This document shows positions 3,661 through 15,139 of a stretch of DNA of 64,000 nucleotides, one piece after another; within the stretch, counting starts at the first letter, position 1; every line of letters begins with the position of its first letter. This stretch comes from Coleofasciculus sp. B1-GNL1-01 (GTDB taxonomy: Bacteria; Cyanobacteriota; Cyanobacteriia; Cyanobacteriales; Coleofasciculaceae). The translations under genes were made by a program, and so were the position numbers. Location: NCBI GenBank assembly GCA_040220235.1, contig JAVJTO010000063.1. One strand, written 5' to 3'. The notes beneath the pieces were generated by a model that saw only the letters and a list, made by a program, of their open reading frames with translations, ran no database searches and was not told the origin of the DNA.

Positions 3661-4410
3661 TTAGAGGATTTGGTGAATAGTCTCAATAACCTGCTCAACA
3701 AAATTAACTGCATCGCTGACGAGAATTTCATCAATGTACCAGCGGCTTCCGATATTATATGTAGGATCTATATCAGCTTCATGAGCAATTTTGTTTCTAC
3801 GATCAACTATCGCACTCAGTTGTTGTTTAACATCTTTGGCGGATCTGCCAAACTTCTGAGCAACCTCTTCCCACAATTTTTTATCTGAAATTAGTCGAAT
3901 GGCATCGGCTATTTTTTCAGGTTGCTGAAAGCTTTGATAGCTAAGACGTTCTCGAACTTTATCTTCTAGCCAAGAGGCATTATTCAGTCTGTTCAAAATG
4001 CCACTTGATATAACTGGGAGCAAAGCCGAAACTGTGTGAGATTGCTGCAAAAATGAGGAACCTTGACTTTGTTGAATTTCATTCTCTAACCAGGATGCAA
4101 TATCCATCGCTATCAATCGTTCTTGTCGTGCGCCACCTAGGGAAACTTGAAAACGAGAAAATGCAGATTGAGAACTGTTGCGTGGAGGATTAGGTTCGGA
4201 ACGCTGACCCCTGTGAATTTCTAGCATTCCTAGAGTTACAACTTCATGGATATAGTAATCCAAGGCGCTCACAGCTAGAACTAGAGCAGCTCTCAAAATA
4301 TCTGACAAATCTAGAGCGGTAGTAGATTGAGCCTTGACAGAGTTGTGAAGAGAAATCAGCTCTCGAACACGAACAATGCTGATTCGGAATTGATCAAGCG
4401 CTGACTGCAT
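3661..4410 (-). CDS. HEPN domain protein (RiboL-PSP-HEPN-like), putative RNase
   Basis: DILRAALVLAVSALDYYIHE helix; RRNKIAH RxxxxH motif; overlaps the parA stop by 17 nt. Confidence 0.8.
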   Translation of the reverse strand: MQSALDQFRISIVRVRELISLHNSVKAQSTTALDLSDILRAALVLAVSALDYYIHEVVTLGMLEIHRGQRSEPNPPRNSSQSAFSRFQVSLGGARQERLIAMDIASWLENEIQQSQGSSFLQQSHTVSALLPVISSGILNRLNNASWLEDKVRERLSYQSFQQPEKIADAIRLISDKKLWEEVAQKFGRSAKDVKQQLSAIVDRRNKIAHEADIDPTYNIGSRWYIDEILVSDAVNFVEQVIETIHQIL

Positions 4411-5467
4411 AGGAAGGAGAAGTGAGTCCTATAATCTTATCGGCTAAATCCGAAAATGTGCTTTCAAATTGTTCTTGCTTATCTTGAGCTTTTTCTATAA
4501 CATTGCCCTGCCATTTAGCAGAACGTAATTGCTCAGGTGTCAAGGCATAGACGGGTACTTGATACTCCTGTGACAGAGCGATTAACCTATTAAAGTCGGG
4601 AATTTTCGTAAGAGTGTAACTTTGATCAATACCATTCTCCCTATAAAGTTGATCGGGAAGCATCATGTTATTTTGCCTCAGAACGGGAATCAGTTTTTTA
4701 GGAATATCCTGTTCAATTCTTCGCATCCATGTTTCAAGAGCAGCAGTTTCATGGCCGCGAATAATCCGAAAGTTTTGGACAATAATACCTAAAAAGCGTA
4801 GTGTAATATCAGGAAATGGATAGGATGCTGCTTTCAATACAGGAAGCGAACTAGCCTGTTTCGCCCAGGCATACCATTTAGGTAAAATTTTAGCTAATGA
4901 ATCAATTGCCATTACAGAAAATAAATCGGCAGTAGTCGGTACTATAAAAAAGTCACTGGTCATTAGTAAATTTTGATTGATTGCTCCTAAGCTGGGAGTC
5001 ATATCAATCAAAATGTAATCTGCACTAAACTTTTTAGCCGTTTTATCTAATAAATCTGTGATAGAGCCGGGTAAGTTTTTGAGACCCTGAATTGAGCTAC
5101 CTAACTCTTGAGCAATTCCCAACGTGGCTTCATATTCTGCAAAACCAACATGACCAGGCAATAAAAACAGTCGTTCTTGTCCCTCAATGGGAATGCAATC
5201 TACTGCCTCAATAGCCCTGGGCTGTGACTCAAATGCTGGTGCTAGCCCTGTTCTAATATTTGAATCTGTACTGTAAATCGCCTCAATTCTTTCCTCGCCG
5301 CTCTCTGTTCCTTGCCCTAAAGCCATACCCGTTAAATTACACTGGGGGTCAGTATCTACAAGAATTACTGTTTTTCCCTTTGAGGCAAGCATCCAACCAA
5401 GATTAAATGTGGTTGTAGTTTTGCTAACTCCGCCTTTGTGATTAAAGAGGGCAATTTTTTGAACCAT
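4394..5467 (-). CDS. ParA/Soj-family ATPase (orphan, no parB)
   Basis: Deviant Walker A KGGVSKTT, VDTDPQCN, YILIDMTPSLG. Confidence 0.9.
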   Translation of the reverse strand: MVQKIALFNHKGGVSKTTTTFNLGWMLASKGKTVILVDTDPQCNLTGMALGQGTESGEERIEAIYSTDSNIRTGLAPAFESQPRAIEAVDCIPIEGQERLFLLPGHVGFAEYEATLGIAQELGSSIQGLKNLPGSITDLLDKTAKKFSADYILIDMTPSLGAINQNLLMTSDFFIVPTTADLFSVMAIDSLAKILPKWYAWAKQASSLPVLKAASYPFPDITLRFLGIIVQNFRIIRGHETAALETWMRRIEQDIPKKLIPVLRQNNMMLPDQLYRENGIDQSYTLTKIPDFNRLIALSQEYQVPVYALTPEQLRSAKWQGNVIEKAQDKQEQFESTFSDLADKIIGLTSPSYAVSA

Positions 5468-5578
5468 TGCACTTACCGCCTCTTAGTTGTTCAACTTTAT
5501 GTTTTAGTATAACTTGATTCTGACTCTTCCGGACTTACTCTGCAAAATGGTTAGTTTCAAGAACTCCCATGCTAGCTC

Positions 5579-5707
5579 TAAGCTGTTCGGCATTTAAACC
5601 TTAATGTCTAATAATGGCGAAAGCCTTGTAGTGCGTTTAGCGAAGCCATGCCGCAGGCTTTGCATCTTGCTCGCTACTAATACCCAATTTAAATGCATGA
5701 CAGCTTA
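5579..5707. mobile_element. MITE-like element, family A (TAAGCTGT...ACAGCTTA), carrying a 26-nt internal insert
   Basis: 8-bp terminal inverted repeat with TA ends; related copies at 16787, 17628 and 37373. Confidence 0.75.
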
Positions 5708-5819
5708 CCTAGGTTTTATACCCCAATAGTCACCTGAGCAGCACAGAATTGAAATACAAAGCCTTGCTAAAATGGAATTACAGCAGTTTGCTCGGCTATG
5801 CTGTACATTGTCGATCCCC

Positions 5820-6110
5820 CTAAATCCCCCATGAAACAAAAAGCGAAGCATCCTTGGTAGGAATGGGTAATTGTTCAGCTTCAAATTTACTGTAAAATCT
5901 ATAAGCAGGAGGACAAACAGAACCGTATCGCCATGCTTGGATTTCTTCATCAAACAATGGCTCATCGTACAAGGCTAAATGTAGACTTTGTACATAATAC
6001 AGAAGCTTTTGAACCTTCATATTGGTCATTTCAGCTTCTATACCGTCCTCGTATGCTCTGACAATGAAGTAGCGAGCTGCATTGAAACATAACTCAACTA
6101 ACGATACCAC
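5820..6110 (-). pseudogene. Panacea (DUF4065/SocA-like) antitoxin, 3'-truncated
   Basis: MTNMKVQKLLYYVQSLHLALYDEPLFDEEIQAWRYG motif; after LPIPTK the frame enters a dispersed repeat and stops, lacking the family's later TH...PW motif. Confidence 0.75.
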
Positions 6111-6187
6111 AAGCGTTTCAAGTTGTATAAATTTTACCTACCCTACATCCAATCGGCTGATTGAGGATGATGCAGGATTTGAATCGC

Positions 6188-7498
6188 TTATCTCGCTTGC
6201 AAACTTGACTCAATTGTATAATCCTTTGATACTGGAATGGGTTCTACCAGCGAAAAGCCCAACAAACGCAGACCCCAACGCTCAAACCAAGGTACAGATA
6301 ACCCCCATCGCATCTTAGTTAAGAAAAATCGCTCAAAGGCAATCTTTAACCAGCTTACCCAACGACCGCGTTTGGCGATCGCACGTCGCCGTTGACCTGT
6401 TTTGGGATTAGGTAAAACGGGATCAGCTAAGAAGACAATTCCTGTATCACCAAAATCCGCCATACAAATCGCTGCTAAGGTTGGCGTCACCGATGCCGCT
6501 TGAATCACACCCAATTCTCTGGCAATATTGTGCGCCACCGCCATACCCATCGCCTCCGCCATTTGCCCCGTTTTTGGCACACCGATAGGCAATGGTGTCT
6601 TTTCCGGTGGCGATAACTGCACAACCACTCCCGCACTATAGATAGAGGGAAATGAGGGATGCTGATACGTCGGTAATACAGGTAGAAAACCCTTGTGATC
6701 ACTCAACCCAGGGACATCTCGGACAAAGCTTGGTCCCCGGAACGGCGGTAGCAGCATGGCGTAATGGAATGGTAGCCTATGACCTTCTGCTAAGGTGATC
6801 TGTTGGGGATGAATGGCAGTAATTTCAGCATTCTCAATCACCTCAATCTGCCGTTGGCGCATTAATTCAGTCACCAATTCCGCCGAATCTGCCATACCCC
6901 CAATTCCCAAATGACCCCCATAAGGTTCTGGGGTGACAAACGTAATCGGTACTTTTTCTCGCAATCCTTGTCGCCGCAGTATCCAATCGGCTAATAGGGC
7001 AAACTCATAAGCCGGTCCCATACAACTCGCACCCGGAACCGCCCCCACAACCAAGGGTCCAGGATTTTCCAGAAATTTCGCCCACGCTTCTTTTGCCATC
7101 AAAGCATGGTGAGGATTGCACACCGATTGGGTGTAACCGTTATCAGGTCCTAATCCTGGTATGGTATCTAGGGCTAATTCTGCTCCGGTAGCAATCACTA
7201 CATAGTCATAATTAATAGTTCTGTCTCCCACCCTTAACCATTGAGCATGGGGGTCAATATCCGTTACCTTACCTTGAACAAACTCAATTTGACGGGATTT
7301 TACCACAGAAGCAATATCTACTTGAATTCGCTGGAGTGGAGTTAAATTGAACGCAACCCACGGGAGAGAGGGAATAAACGTAAATTTAGGTTTGTCACAA
7401 ATTAACGTAATTTGGTGGACGTGAGGCAGGAGATGCCGCAGTTCGTAAGCGGTGGGTAGTCCGCCAATACCCGCACCGATTACCACAATATGAGCCAT
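6188..7498 (-). CDS. sqr: Sulfide:quinone oxidoreductase, type I (SqrA-like)
   Basis: MAHIVVIGAGIGG FAD motif; three conserved Cys in SVCNP, GASCMGPAYE and AAICMADFGD; VPKTG; likely start ATG 7498. Confidence 0.92.
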   Translation of the reverse strand: MAHIVVIGAGIGGLPTAYELRHLLPHVHQITLICDKPKFTFIPSLPWVAFNLTPLQRIQVDIASVVKSRQIEFVQGKVTDIDPHAQWLRVGDRTINYDYVVIATGAELALDTIPGLGPDNGYTQSVCNPHHALMAKEAWAKFLENPGPLVVGAVPGASCMGPAYEFALLADWILRRQGLREKVPITFVTPEPYGGHLGIGGMADSAELVTELMRQRQIEVIENAEITAIHPQQITLAEGHRLPFHYAMLLPPFRGPSFVRDVPGLSDHKGFLPVLPTYQHPSFPSIYSAGVVVQLSPPEKTPLPIGVPKTGQMAEAMGMAVAHNIARELGVIQAASVTPTLAAICMADFGDTGIVFLADPVLPNPKTGQRRRAIAKRGRWVSWLKIAFERFFLTKMRWGLSVPWFERWGLRLLGFSLVEPIPVSKDYTIESSLQAR

Positions 7499-7520: not shown

Positions 7521-7549
7521 ACTATACAACTTTGTAACTATATTTACAA
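7521..7549 (-). promoter_or_regulatory. Predicted sqr promoter (TTGTAA-N17-TATAGT) overlapped by palindrome TTGTAA-N6-TTACAA, which also fits the NtcA box GTA-N8-TAC
   Basis: Plus strand 7532-7549 TTGTAACTATATTTACAA; -10 (ACTATA on plus) at 7521-7526. Confidence 0.6.
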
Positions 7550-7805: not shown

Positions 7806-8339
7806 ATGGAAGACAGTCTATCGATGCAAAGTCCCTCAATGTCTCGGCGACAGCTTCTCAACTTCCTCACCGGAGCAACTATCGCCGCTACAGCTAGCGC
7901 CGCCCTCTATCCAGCCGCTAAATTCTTTGTCCCACCCCAAGAAGGGGGCGCAGATGGTTCGATTATCGCCAAAGATAAATTAGGGAATCCCATCCCCGTG
8001 TCCCAGATAGTAGCCCAAGGTGCAGGTACCCGTGCTTTGGTCGCGGGTTTAGCAGGTGAACCGACGTATTTAACCGTTACCGACGATAACACCTTAGACT
8101 CAATCGGAATTGTCGATAACTGCACCCACTTAGGTTGTACCTTTCCTTGGAACAATATCGACCAACAATTTCAATGTCCCTGTCACGGGTCTCGTTATAG
8201 TCCCGATGGTTCTGTTGTCCGGGGTCCGGCTGACCGTCCCCTAAAACTGGTGCAGGTTAATATCGAAGGCGACTACATCCGCATAGCGCCTTGGACGGAA
8301 ACTGATCCCCGCACTGGGGAAACACCGTGGTGGGTGTAA
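7806..8339 (+). CDS. petC: Cytochrome b6f Rieske iron-sulfur subunit (petC paralog without adjacent petA)
   Basis: Tat RRQLL, CTHLGC and CPCHGS boxes, [15 protein letters not shown]-terminus. Confidence 0.92.
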
Positions 8340-8578: not shown

Positions 8579-8956
8579 ATGAACTCTGTCTGTTCTTTTT
8601 CTCCTTCTGTCAAAGACTGTTCTCCCCAAGAATTTGTCCACTCTGCAAATCAGCCTTTACTTATCGATGTCCGCAGTGGGTTTGAATATGCCATGGGTCA
8701 CGCTCCCAGCGCAATTAACCTCAGTTTACCCCGCCTTATTATCGGCATGATCCCGATGTTTCGCCGCTGGGTTTTACCGCAATGGTTCCAAGATTTGCCC
8801 AAAGACAAACCCATTGCCGTTATTTGTTTAACCGCCCATCGCAGTCCTATTGCTGCCAAACAACTAGCTAAAGCGGGTTTTGCTAAAGTGTTTAACATCA
8901 CGGGCGGTATGGTGGAATGGCGACGGTTAGGCTTAGAGATTCAAACCAATTCGTAA
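8579..8956 (+). CDS. Single-domain rhodanese (sulfurtransferase)
   Basis: LIDVRSGFEYAMGHAPSA, active-site loop CLTAHR, GGMVEW. Confidence 0.88.
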   Translation: MNSVCSFSPSVKDCSPQEFVHSANQPLLIDVRSGFEYAMGHAPSAINLSLPRLIIGMIPMFRRWVLPQWFQDLPKDKPIAVICLTAHRSPIAAKQLAKAGFAKVFNITGGMVEWRRLGLEIQTNS

Positions 8957-9033: not shown

Positions 9034-9720
9034 ATGGTCTTAAAAATACAACCCTGTTCAAACTGGTACAAACAATTATTTGCTTGGGGAATGGCGAAGG
9101 CAAACGCAGCCGATGAAAATGCTATTCAATTGGCAAATTGCAGTAGCCATTCTACCCTAGCTCAACTCAAGCAGGCTTTATTTGCCGACTTGCAGGGGAA
9201 AGTCTTAGAAATTGGACCAGGCGCTGGGGTTAATTTAGAGTATTATCCCACTGACATTCATTGGATAGGCGTTGAACCGAATCCCTTTATGCATTCCTAC
9301 CTGGAACAGGAAGCCGAACAGGTTGGGTTGAACAGGATTGATATCAAAAGTGGGTCGGCTGAACGGATTGAGGTTGAGGATAATAGTGTGGATGCTGTCG
9401 TCAGTACCTACGTTCTCTGTTCCGTCAGCAATCTTCCCGCAACCGTACAAGAAATTCGGCGAATTCTCAAGCCAGGAGGTCGCTTTTTGTTTGTTGAACA
9501 TGTGGCGGCTGAATGTGGCAGTTGGCAACGGCGGATTCAAGGTAGCATTGAGCCGATTTGGAAAACGGTGTTTGATGGGTGTCGCCCGAATCGGGAAACC
9601 TGGCTGGCATTAGAAAAGGCGGGATTTGAAAACCTAAATTATCAACAGTTTCAGGTTTCTTTTCCAATTGTTAGTCCTCATATTTCTGGAGTGGCTACTA
9701 AAAGTAGAGATGTGTCATAA
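9034..9720 (+). CDS. Class I SAM methyltransferase resembling TMT1A/B (METTL7)/MddH thiol methyltransferases
   Basis: VLEIGPGAG, EPNP, SVDAVVSTYVLCSV, LKPGG, EHVAAECGSW, FDGC, PHISG. Confidence 0.8.
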   Translation: MVLKIQPCSNWYKQLFAWGMAKANAADENAIQLANCSSHSTLAQLKQALFADLQGKVLEIGPGAGVNLEYYPTDIHWIGVEPNPFMHSYLEQEAEQVGLNRIDIKSGSAERIEVEDNSVDAVVSTYVLCSVSNLPATVQEIRRILKPGGRFLFVEHVAAECGSWQRRIQGSIEPIWKTVFDGCRPNRETWLALEKAGFENLNYQQFQVSFPIVSPHISGVATKSRDVS

Positions 9721-9742
9721 CAGGAGTTTGGGAAAAGCCAGG

Positions 9743-10086
9743 GAGCCAAGAAATAAATTTCTGGCTTAAAGCTAAAGTAAGCTAAAGCTTACTGGATAAG
9801 TCTTTCTCAGTTCTCTAAAACCATTAAAACTATGCAACTCACGAAAAAAAATCTGCCTGAACGTCTGAATCATAAAGTCAGTCTTGTTTGCTTGTTGCGG
9901 GTGGAGACTCTTTAGGTTAAATGGCATGCTCCTTAAGCGAAATGTTGTTGGCTTGAGAGCCAAGAAATAAATTTCTGGCTCAAAGCTAAAGTAAGCTAAA
10001 GCTTACTGGATAAGTCTTTCTCAGTTCTCTAGAACTATTAAAACTATGCAACTCACGAAAAAAAAATTGCCTGAACGTCTGAATCA
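9743..10086 (+). repeat. 130-bp direct duplication (9743-9872 and 9957-10086) covering the upstream region and first codons of the flavoprotein gene
   Basis: Near-identical copies offset by 214 nt; ATGCAACTCACGAAAAAAAA at 9832 and 10046. Confidence 0.9.
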
Positions 10087-11044
10087 CATTTATGATGCGA
10101 TTGTCGTCGGCGGCGGTGCCGGTGGATTTTCTGCTGGAATCTATCTGCAACGATTTCGCCTTTCAAGCTTAATTATTGATAAAGGCAAAGCTCGCTCATT
10201 CTGGATGCAGGAATTGCACAATTATTTAGGCTTACCACCGGATACTCCAGGTCGCGTTCTGTTGCAACAAGGGAAACAGCATTATACCTCTTTAAACGGT
10301 GATATGCTGAATGGTTATGTTGAAGAAGTGGTGGATGAGGGAGATAGGTTTGCCGTGCGGGTAAAGGTGGGTCGTAAAAATAGTATTTACCCCGTATTCC
10401 GCTCGAAATACTTAATTGCTGCGAGTGGCATTATCGACAATTTACCCCCTTTGGAGGATATGCAAAATGTCTTTGATTATGCAGGATATAACTTACACGT
10501 CTGTATGGTTTGTGATGGCTACGAAATGACAGATAAACAATGTGGTTTCATTGCGGGTAGTGAAGCCAGTATTGAAGAAATGGTGTTTAATCTCAGTTGG
10601 TTTACTCCTTATATCACCGTGTTCACTCATGGACTGTTTGCGGTGAGTGACTCAATGCGTTCTCAACTGCACAATCATGGTTATCGTTTGGTGGAAACCC
10701 CGATTAAGAAATTTCTGGGTGAAAATCACCAGATGACGGGAGTTGAGTTAGTGGATGGGTCAATTATTCCCTTAGAAACTGGATTAATTTCTATGGGGTC
10801 ACGCTATCACAATACTTATCTCCAAGGATTCAATTTAGATGTCAAGGGTAGTAATCTGATTACCGATAAAATGGGGCGGACGTCTCACCCGCGAATTTTT
10901 GCGATTGGAGACTTAAAAGTGGGGTTAAATCAAGTGGTTGTGGCGGCTGGAGATGGTGCTTTAGCAGCGACTCAGATTTGGCGAGATATTCGTCGGGAAT
11001 CCGGTTCTCGCCGCTGGGAGGAAAATCTAGCGGTTTCTGTTTAG
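10046..11044 (+). CDS. Thioredoxin-reductase-like FAD oxidoreductase with CxxC
   Basis: DAIVVGGGAGG, HVCMVCDGYE, TSHPRIFAIGD. Confidence 0.85.
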   Translation: MQLTKKKLPERLNHIYDAIVVGGGAGGFSAGIYLQRFRLSSLIIDKGKARSFWMQELHNYLGLPPDTPGRVLLQQGKQHYTSLNGDMLNGYVEEVVDEGDRFAVRVKVGRKNSIYPVFRSKYLIAASGIIDNLPPLEDMQNVFDYAGYNLHVCMVCDGYEMTDKQCGFIAGSEASIEEMVFNLSWFTPYITVFTHGLFAVSDSMRSQLHNHGYRLVETPIKKFLGENHQMTGVELVDGSIIPLETGLISMGSRYHNTYLQGFNLDVKGSNLITDKMGRTSHPRIFAIGDLKVGLNQVVVAAGDGALAATQIWRDIRRESGSRRWEENLAVSV

Positions 11045-11139: not shown

Positions 11140-11637
11140 ATGATGAAAAGTAAAAAAATGATATCAGGATTAATCCTGGGATTATTACTGGTTTTAACTC
11201 TGCTAGGTGGTGTATTTTTGCCTAAATCTGCCCTAGCTGCCGTAGAATCTAAGGTGACGAGTCCACCTAGCGCAGAAGTCTATACAGCAGTCGATCAGTT
11301 GCTGAATTCGCTACCACGAGATTACTACACAGTAATGCAGGTAAAGCAGTTAAAGAACAAGCTCAAAAAGCGGGATAATGTCGTATTGGTTGATGTGCGA
11401 GAACCGTCTGAATATGATTCAGGACACATTCCTGGCGCTATTAATATTCCCGTGCGATCGCTCACCAAAAATTTGGATAAAATTCCCACGGATAAACCTG
11501 TAATTTTATACTGTTCGAGTGGGCATCGCACGGCAATTGGCATGACGGCGTTGCGGTTGTTAGGGTACACGAATGTTCGCAGTTTTCCTCCCAGTATTAA
11601 TGGCTGGAAGGCGGCTGGCGAACCGTTGGAAAAATAA
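11140..11637 (+). CDS. Exported rhodanese (Sec-type signal peptide)
   Basis: Start ATG 11140: MMKSKK, hydrophobic stretch, SALA/A; DVREPSEYDSGHIPGA; CSSGHR loop. Confidence 0.85.
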   Translation: MMKSKKMISGLILGLLLVLTLLGGVFLPKSALAAVESKVTSPPSAEVYTAVDQLLNSLPRDYYTVMQVKQLKNKLKKRDNVVLVDVREPSEYDSGHIPGAINIPVRSLTKNLDKIPTDKPVILYCSSGHRTAIGMTALRLLGYTNVRSFPPSINGWKAAGEPLEK

Positions 11638-14377: not shown

Positions 14378-15139
14378 ATGTTGCCATTCACGGGTTATGA
14401 CTCAAGCACTTACCCAATTTTCAATCAATGTCTTCAACGGTATTTTCCAGGTGCATTACCTATGGAAGATTACATGAAAAAAACTTTCCATTGTTTAAAT
14501 GCCCTGGGTTTTGAAGATGAAAATACAATGGGAATGGCAGCACTCTGTCGGGACGAAATTACTGATCCGTTACTTAATGAAGTCATTAAATACTGGGGGA
14601 AAACCTTTAATTGTTGTAGTCTTGCTGGGTTCGTGATGATGGGAAAAACGGGTTTAGCTGCCGCAACAGATCACGTTCCGATTTTCGATGGAATACGCCG
14701 CTTTACATTTTTAGCAATGCCTCATATTGCAATTTCTAGAGACGGAGAAATTGGCAAGGTTTATCGAGAAGGTATCCACAAAGCGTCTCATGCCTGTGGT
14801 GCATTAGAAACGATTGTAAACGAGTTAAAATCAGGACGTCTTAATCTGCAAATGGATATCGAGGATCTGGAACAATCTATTATCCGACAAAAAATACTGT
14901 CCACTATAAATTATGGAGACAAACCGAATTTAGTTGAGATGACTAAGTTGGCTTGTCAGATTATTTCTGATGATGTACAAACCCTCTTGCATCCTTTAGA
15001 TTCTTCTATATTTAAGTATGCGGTGATGACGGGTATTCAAATTCATGGTCCTATGGATACGAACTGGATCTATCCTCATAATTTTTATGTGGTGGGTGCA
15101 GATTTACCAGGAGGCAAAAAGTTTATTGAAGTGGTTTGA
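14378..15139 (+). CDS. LCIB/LCIC-family (theta-type) carbonic anhydrase-like protein
   Basis: LCRDE, G-K-TG, PHIAISRDGEIG and ACGAL motifs give the Cys-His-Cys Zn ligands, as recalled for Chlamydomonas LCIB. Confidence 0.85.
   Translation: MLPFTGYDSSTYPIFNQCLQRYFPGALPMEDYMKKTFHCLNALGFEDENTMGMAALCRDEITDPLLNEVIKYWGKTFNCCSLAGFVMMGKTGLAAATDHVPIFDGIRRFTFLAMPHIAISRDGEIGKVYREGIHKASHACGALETIVNELKSGRLNLQMDIEDLEQSIIRQKILSTINYGDKPNLVEMTKLACQIISDDVQTLLHPLDSSIFKYAVMTGIQIHGPMDTNWIYPHNFYVVGADLPGGKKFIEVV

Follow-up and report, generated by a model that had tools for sequence, protein, structure and literature searches.

A TMT1-type candidate thiol S-methyltransferase in a sulfur and low-oxygen gene island of Coleofasciculus

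What would a methyltransferase be doing next to the sulfide:quinone oxidoreductase gene (sqr) of a mat cyanobacterium? The gene that raises this question lies at 9034–9720 on the plus strand of the 64,000-nucleotide stretch of Coleofasciculus DNA analyzed here (the window), and an earlier note, made from the letters alone, had proposed that it specifies a TMT1/METTL7- and MddH-like enzyme turning H2S into methanethiol and dimethylsulfide (DMS). The reading frame is intact, running from ATG to TAA, and its 228-residue product, a member of the Pfam Methyltransf_11 family (E 9.9e-19), is classed here by Pfam, trees and a structural model as a TMT1/METTL7-type class I SAM methyltransferase and a candidate thiol S-methyltransferase. 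It displays the class I hallmarks, namely the SAM-binding GxGxG loop (residues 59–65), the acidic residue after strand 2 (E81) and the seven-strand core; in the AlphaFold2 model (pLDDT 91) strands and helices come in the expected order. No membrane anchor is predicted, the highest 19-residue hydropathy being 1.1. The five motifs quoted in the earlier note are all there, at residues 118–131, 145–164, 179–183, 187–194 and 215–219, and C129, E155-H156, Q169, C183 and R187 are invariant in 15 aligned proteins from both sides of the family, including both validated MddH enzymes and three named arthropod TMT1-like proteins. An 11-residue insertion at about residues 29–39 (9118–9150, plus strand), recognized in the alignments and often carrying Cys or His at position 36, marks the cyanobacterial clade that we call clade A; in the window protein it is modelled at a pLDDT of about 87–92.

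Among the matches listed (25 of 27 families), no NCBIfam cut-off is reached by this protein. The best of nine matches to solved structures is YcgJ (E 9.5e-12), with no close relative among the nine, and a feature search of a protein-cluster atlas returned only unnamed Methyltransf_11 clusters. The gene is single-copy, the other five of six matches in the genome having E values of 4e-6 or weaker, and is the sole TMT1/MddH-family gene of the Coleofasciculus genome. A Coleofasciculus sp. homologue is 94% identical to its product, and the protein of another genome of the genus (G004) equally so.

The likeness to TMT1 proved real: the protein shares 45% identity over 175 residues (E 2e-47, 145 bits) with a TMT1B-like protein of the horseshoe crab Tachypleus, a similarity far beyond chance, although the match is to this named arthropod protein and not to human TMT1A/B. 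Four plant- or alga-type proteins, so labelled from our own reading of unnamed sequences, are 37–40% identical to it (147–164 bits), and the remaining 15 of the 16 named arthropod proteins score 88–140 bits, a range overlapping the 80–117 bits of the MddH-type proteins. The validated MddH genes were taken from frames in their own genomes (L134, M. litoralis Sw-45; L128, H. pelagia CL-AP6), which agree by eye with the MddH sequences in the supplement of PMC11445057; their products are 34% (E 3e-32) and 33% (E 1e-31) identical to the window protein, respectively, and none of 36 MddH-type rows exceeds 40%. The published rule for MddH is more than 45% identity and an E value of at most 1e-50 to the Halomonas EF61 enzyme (PMC11445057). 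An identification as MddH was set aside on the 33–34% identity (E about 1e-31) to these two validated enzymes, neither of them that of EF61, together with the trees.

Of 136 proteins collected, 25 redundant or partial rows were removed and the other 111 went into a quick tree; a careful one was computed from 47, and AU tests used 32 rows. Trees and alignments covered arthropod TMT1-like, plant and MddH proteins, leaving out vertebrate TMT1 and MddM sequences, and their animal rows are named by homology only. Both trees split MddH from the TMT1 side. In the unrooted 47-protein tree, one side of this split (support 100/100) comprises MddH and a cyanobacterial clade C, and the other the window methyltransferase together with the plant proteins, the arthropod TMT1-like proteins and a mix of unnamed ones. 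Upon rooting with six long-branch methyltransferase outgroups, SH-aLRT support is 98 for the MddH side, 80 for the TMT1 side and 96 for both together. Grouping of the window clade with MddH is rejected (AU p 4.8e-5, 32 rows), and a single side uniting cyanobacterial clades A, B and C with MddH is weakly rejected (p 0.042, 32 rows). The protein fell among the TMT1-like and MddH proteins and not outside them; the unrooted split and the Tachypleus match uphold the TMT1/METTL7-type placement given in the earlier note, while low identity, a separate clade and the AU test speak against membership of MddH. The window methyltransferase represents a TMT1-side clade of this family and, though no member of MddH, likely works as MddH does.

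The gene order in the window is sqr (minus strand), petC, rhodanese, methyltransferase, DDOR, rhodanese. The gene that the earlier note had called sqr (6188–7498, minus strand, divergent from petC, its frame open to a GTG at 7522) does match solved sulfide-quinone reductases (3HYV, E 7e-101), and lies 1.5 kb from the methyltransferase gene on the opposite strand. The petC gene (7806–8339, plus strand) codes for a second cytochrome b6f Rieske protein, 50% identical to the other PetC of the genome and likely of the low-oxygen type by analogy with the genes described in PMC5295598. A single-domain rhodanese (8579–8956, plus strand) ends 77 bp upstream of the methyltransferase gene on the same strand, and a homologue of DDOR, the diflavin-linked disulfide oxidoreductase, with a CxxC motif (10046–11044, plus strand) follows it, succeeded by a second rhodanese with a hydrophobic N-terminus and an uncertain start codon (11140–11637, plus strand). 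DDOR owes its name here to matches with PDB entries 5JRI (E 4e-134) and 5N0J (E 4e-117), which we take to be Slr0600 and Gll2934. The name is also that of PMC9025218.

From strand and spacing (239, 77 and 325 bp), an operon from petC onwards is plausible. A scan of the plus strand found no terminator-like site between petC and the DDOR start, and promoter-like sites (12 against 8.1 ± 3.0 in shuffles) are uninformative. A 130-nucleotide direct duplication (9743–9872 and 9957–10086, plus strand, 96%) takes in the DDOR upstream region and first codons; related mat RNA contigs skip it, joining 9723 to 10018. Every cluster gene is covered by contigs from 4 of 8 RNA-library runs on hypersaline or marine samples, from a relative about 94–96% alike, but since such contigs cannot tell RNA from carried-over DNA without a silent-stretch control, we do not count them as evidence of expression. 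Farther out, the region downstream of sqr (3661–6110) holds a ParA-like ATPase, a RiboL-PSP-HEPN gene and a short Panacea antitoxin fragment, and positions 5499–6182 are skipped by related contigs. An LCIB/C-type beta-carbonic anhydrase is found at 14378–15139 (E 2.5e-69), and a persulfide-dioxygenase-like gene with a rhodanese occurs elsewhere in the genome (L200, G000:C40:44520-45831).

Homologues are scattered across the cyanobacteria: at E 1e-25, with seven candidates scored per genome, a match occurs in 45 of 401 genomes sampled from the phylum, and at E 1e-30 in 21 of 61 relatives, including all eight same-genus genomes. The clades rest on tree position and the insertion, with neighbor genes playing no part in their definition; clade A, with the insertion, includes the window methyltransferase (support 99 and 100/98), and clade B has no insertion. 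Marker genes were picked from clade A neighborhoods and sought by tblastn in stretches of 4–19 kb. The 21 clade A loci, eight of them from Coleofasciculus, represent 13 genus-level groups (the fragmentary L043, L061 and L062 were left out). Sulfur or low-oxygen island genes occur at 18 of the 21, with DDOR at 12, petC at 11 and sqr at 8, making DDOR the most constant neighbor of the clade A methyltransferase. Counted by genus-level group, a marker is present in 10 of 13, DDOR in six and sqr in three, a fourth having sqr 13 kb away. At the 16 clade B loci, on contigs that are in some cases short, sqr, petC and DDOR were each found at none, and rhodaneses only as weak matches (27–35%) at three. 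Clade A on the TMT1 side is an undescribed cyanobacterial clade tied to a sulfur and low-oxygen island, and the conserved neighborhood, as opposed to the zero of 16 in clade B, proved specific to it.

Other clade A neighbors include YeeE/YedE, SulP, persulfide-dioxygenase-like, NifX-like, DUF2214, DUF4079, ArsR and psbA genes; at one locus (L035) the gene adjoins a persulfide-dioxygenase-like gene, YeeE/YedE and SulP. HdrB-like genes recur near the island or sqr (L035, with an adjacent 4Fe-4S gene, L046, L047, L185, L192 and L194), and the island of one genome (G401) holds a second, TehB-like methyltransferase (L044:4746-5336). The genus also shows losses: the G006 locus (L033) has no sqr, petC, first rhodanese or DDOR and keeps the methyltransferase and second rhodanese, and that of G001 (L032) has transposase-like frames in place of DDOR and the second rhodanese. 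Clade C is the sister group of MddH (100/100) and is present, by score, in about 25 of 400 genomes; its proteins (L022-L026, L063-L067) are 38–43% identical to M. litoralis MddH (E 1e-49 to 1e-60). The main text of PMC11445057 mentions cyanobacteria for mddA only, and its source-data sheet has cyanobacterial rows under an unclear heading.

These neighborhoods bear on what the enzyme might methylate. Thiol methyltransferases can methylate selenide, and the window enzyme might act on selenide, telluride or arsenite, or serve metal resistance: clade B loci (4 of 16) and widely examined clade C loci (2 of 5, with CopA and MerR) adjoin metal-resistance genes, among them CopA, MerR, CusA or multicopper oxidase, and an ACR3-like gene adjoins one clade A gene (L049). 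We find this quite improbable, for CopA or MerR occurs at none of the 21 clade A loci, the protein is no ArsM (52 bits against an NCBIfam cut-off of 263), and a Halomonas mddH mutant is not cobalt- or zinc-sensitive (PMC11445057). Island genes were seen at none of those five clade C loci.

The clade A island resembles the microoxic petC-rhodanese-psbA1 cluster, which is low-oxygen-induced in Acaryochloris and Synechocystis (PMC5295598). This likeness would also suit a mere passenger of a low-oxygen island that O-, N- or C-methylates a non-sulfur small molecule such as a quinone, pigment, lipid or other metabolite: the Stanieria gene comes after petC, psbA, NifX-like and DUF4079 genes in a stretch with no sqr, marker genes are missing from three of the 21 clade A loci, and neither H2S nor methanethiol was methylated in E. 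coli by a eukaryotic Mdd-like protein that shares 41% identity with an MddM1 (PMC12904073). Such a role seems unlikely to us in view of the UbiE/MenG, MpqE, PmtA and BioC models, which give 38–57 bits against cut-offs of 158–390 (UbiE/MenG, TIGR01934, 38 against 158), and of the tree, in which the protein sits with the TMT1-like and MddH proteins at a great distance from the six outgroup methyltransferases.

How tight, then, is the tie to sqr itself? In the 400-genome sample, in which kin are not independent and clade C genomes are assigned mostly by score, 38 genomes have sqr, including 6 of 9 with clade A, 2 of 10 with clade B and 10 of 25 with clade C. The 6 of 9 compare with 32 of 391 other genomes, kin again not being independent, or with 32 of 141 once 250 genomes of families without sqr are dropped. 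Conversely, an intact clade A gene is present in only 6 of the 38 genomes with sqr and missing from 32, and G006 keeps the gene with no sqr detected; strict dependence on sqr is ruled out by these two facts. G008 has sqr and a clade B gene only, its petC lying at a contig edge. A clade A gene was likewise missing from all 20 further stretches chosen around sqr or DDOR, although one of these lies next to L044 and some run into a contig edge. In Acaryochloris, neighbors of the plasmid-borne clade A gene (AM1_D0242 and D0245) appear in the oxygen-responsive table of the PMC5295598 study, in which the gene itself was not found by coordinates. The sqr cluster of the earlier note is confirmed for the window; for the clade the tie is to a wider island of DDOR, petC and rhodanese more than to sqr. 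As for DDOR, a subgroup at least 75% identical to the window protein (13 of 400 genomes) co-occurs with sqr in 10 of 13, within a few kb in G089, G113, G226, G232, G165, G098, G308 and G033 (loci L179-L183, L191, L045 and L049). The usual DDOR neighbors are PrxII and PerR (PMC9025218); the DDOR-sqr tie is tighter than that of the methyltransferase to sqr, and may be a clue to the DDOR substrate.

Thiol S-methylation is suggested by the gene context and by enzymes validated on either side of the family (MddH; vertebrate TMT1A/B). By this analogy, the window methyltransferase may convert H2S to methanethiol and/or methanethiol to DMS, a proposal that we regard as evenly poised in itself and prefer to the other readings. 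Since the Coleofasciculus genome has neither a match to mddA (the membrane methyltransferase, NF045656, also absent from the families listed for the window protein) nor a clade C gene, it is the only candidate there among the families tested. For MddM, the published rule is at least 40% identity, an E value of at most 1e-30 and 70% coverage to M. poriferae MddM, and in none of the 34 metagenome loci reached with a published MddM1 primer did a related methyltransferase lie at the primer site. In the mechanism that we envisage, sulfide would go first to SQR, whose affinity is micromolar, and plastoquinone and the second Rieske protein would be fed from there; sulfane sulfur would fall to the rhodaneses and DDOR; and the methyltransferase would come into play only at high sulfide or methanethiol (MddH Km about 0.2 mM), as overflow detoxification. 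Thiol methylation would then be ancestral to the TMT1/MddH family and retained in clade A. Against this stand the 33–34% identity to the closest validated enzymes compared, the inactive eukaryotic Mdd-like protein (PMC12904073), the Halomonas mddH mutant, which is no more H2S-sensitive (PMC11445057), and the rarity of intact clade A genes among sqr genomes. Methylation moreover costs SAM and takes away an electron donor, and the insertion may have altered the substrate.

That substrate could instead arise in the steps after SQR and the rhodaneses, as a persulfide, a polysulfide or an organic thiol, the enzyme capping sulfane sulfur to give methyl polysulfides or protecting a thiol while working with DDOR. 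DDOR and rhodanese are more constant neighbors than sqr, the upstream rhodanese is close by on the same strand, the insertion often has a Cys, vertebrate TMT1A acts on bulky organic thiols (PMC10705543), and PMC9025218 leaves the DDOR acceptor unassigned. We nevertheless give this only a minor share of the probability: MddH does not act on glutathione, cysteine or CoA (PMC11445057) and, as weak evidence, none of four longer homologues (three plant, one unnamed, their recognizable domains methyltransferase-type only) is fused to rhodanese, DDOR or SQR.

Returning to H2S and methanethiol as substrates, a broader picture, which we put forward tentatively and as short of probable, is that Coleofasciculus, which builds sulfidic mats, and scattered other cyanobacteria possess a TMT1-type enzyme of their own, induced together with SQR, DDOR, rhodaneses and a low-oxygen Rieske protein, and turn sulfide into methanethiol and DMS. 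If so, mat cyanobacteria would be a direct, DMSP-independent source of both compounds through a clade that MddA and MddH surveys have missed, and DDOR, by its place in the island, would have a part in handling sulfane sulfur. Published sulfide-methylation surveys use MddA, MddH and MddM probes, and clade A lies far short of the identity and E value required for MddH. Were the enzyme active, oxygenic phototrophs of sulfidic mats would join the producers of climate-active DMS, the bacterial TMT1-side protein would serve as a soluble model both for the animal enzymes, which are membrane-associated, and for the plant homologues, and genes other than sqr could be tested for a part in cyanobacterial sulfide tolerance. 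Searches that left most subscription journals outside found nothing on Coleofasciculus or Microcoleus chthonoplastes and methanethiol, nor on petC2; by title and opening of abstract, nothing on cyanobacteria, TMT1 and methanethiol concerned clade A, and the accessible literature reports no measured activity for a clade A, clade B or plant-group enzyme.

Among known systems, TMT1A and TMT1B (METTL7A/B), represented here by arthropod TMT1-like rows, lie in that form on the same side of the tree as the window methyltransferase and have in common with it the Cys, Glu-His, Cys-x3-Arg and C-terminal Pro-His motifs. They differ in a hydrophobic N-terminal segment, apparently present in the arthropod proteins and absent from the window protein, and in a SAM-binding Asp where the latter has Glu81; the window protein further stands apart by its insertion and its bacterial gene island. 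Thiol methylation by TMT1A is conserved between fish and humans, with activity in five vertebrates (PMC10705543). MddH (Zhang et al. 2024, PMC11445057), which methylates H2S and methanethiol with a Km of about 0.22 mM and is described there as phylogenetically distinct from TMT1A/B, resembles the window protein in class I fold, similar size, GxGxG loop, Glu at the SAM-binding acidic position and the invariant Cys, His, Cys and Arg; its genes, however, adjoin metal genes or cydAB without a general link to sulfur. MddM1 and MddM2 (Guo et al. 2025, PMC12904073) are likewise class I H2S/methanethiol methyltransferases with an MddH-like fold and a proposed detoxification role, but are mainly from Actinomycetota, cyanobacteria not being named in the accessible text. 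According to PMC5061849, the type I SQR of cyanobacteria has an affinity in the micromolar range, and in Coleofasciculus it sustains photosynthesis on sulfide; the sole methyltransferase in the accessible part of that study is ArsM-like and on another contig, and neither there nor in that of PMC5295598 is a TMT1-type gene or DDOR mentioned near sqr or petC. With the microoxic psbA1-petC-rhodanese cluster and cyanobacterial sqr loci, the window shares the second petC and a rhodanese, and several related loci also share psbA, NifX-like and ArsR genes; the window locus itself differs in having no psbA or ArsR and in adding the TMT1-type gene and DDOR.
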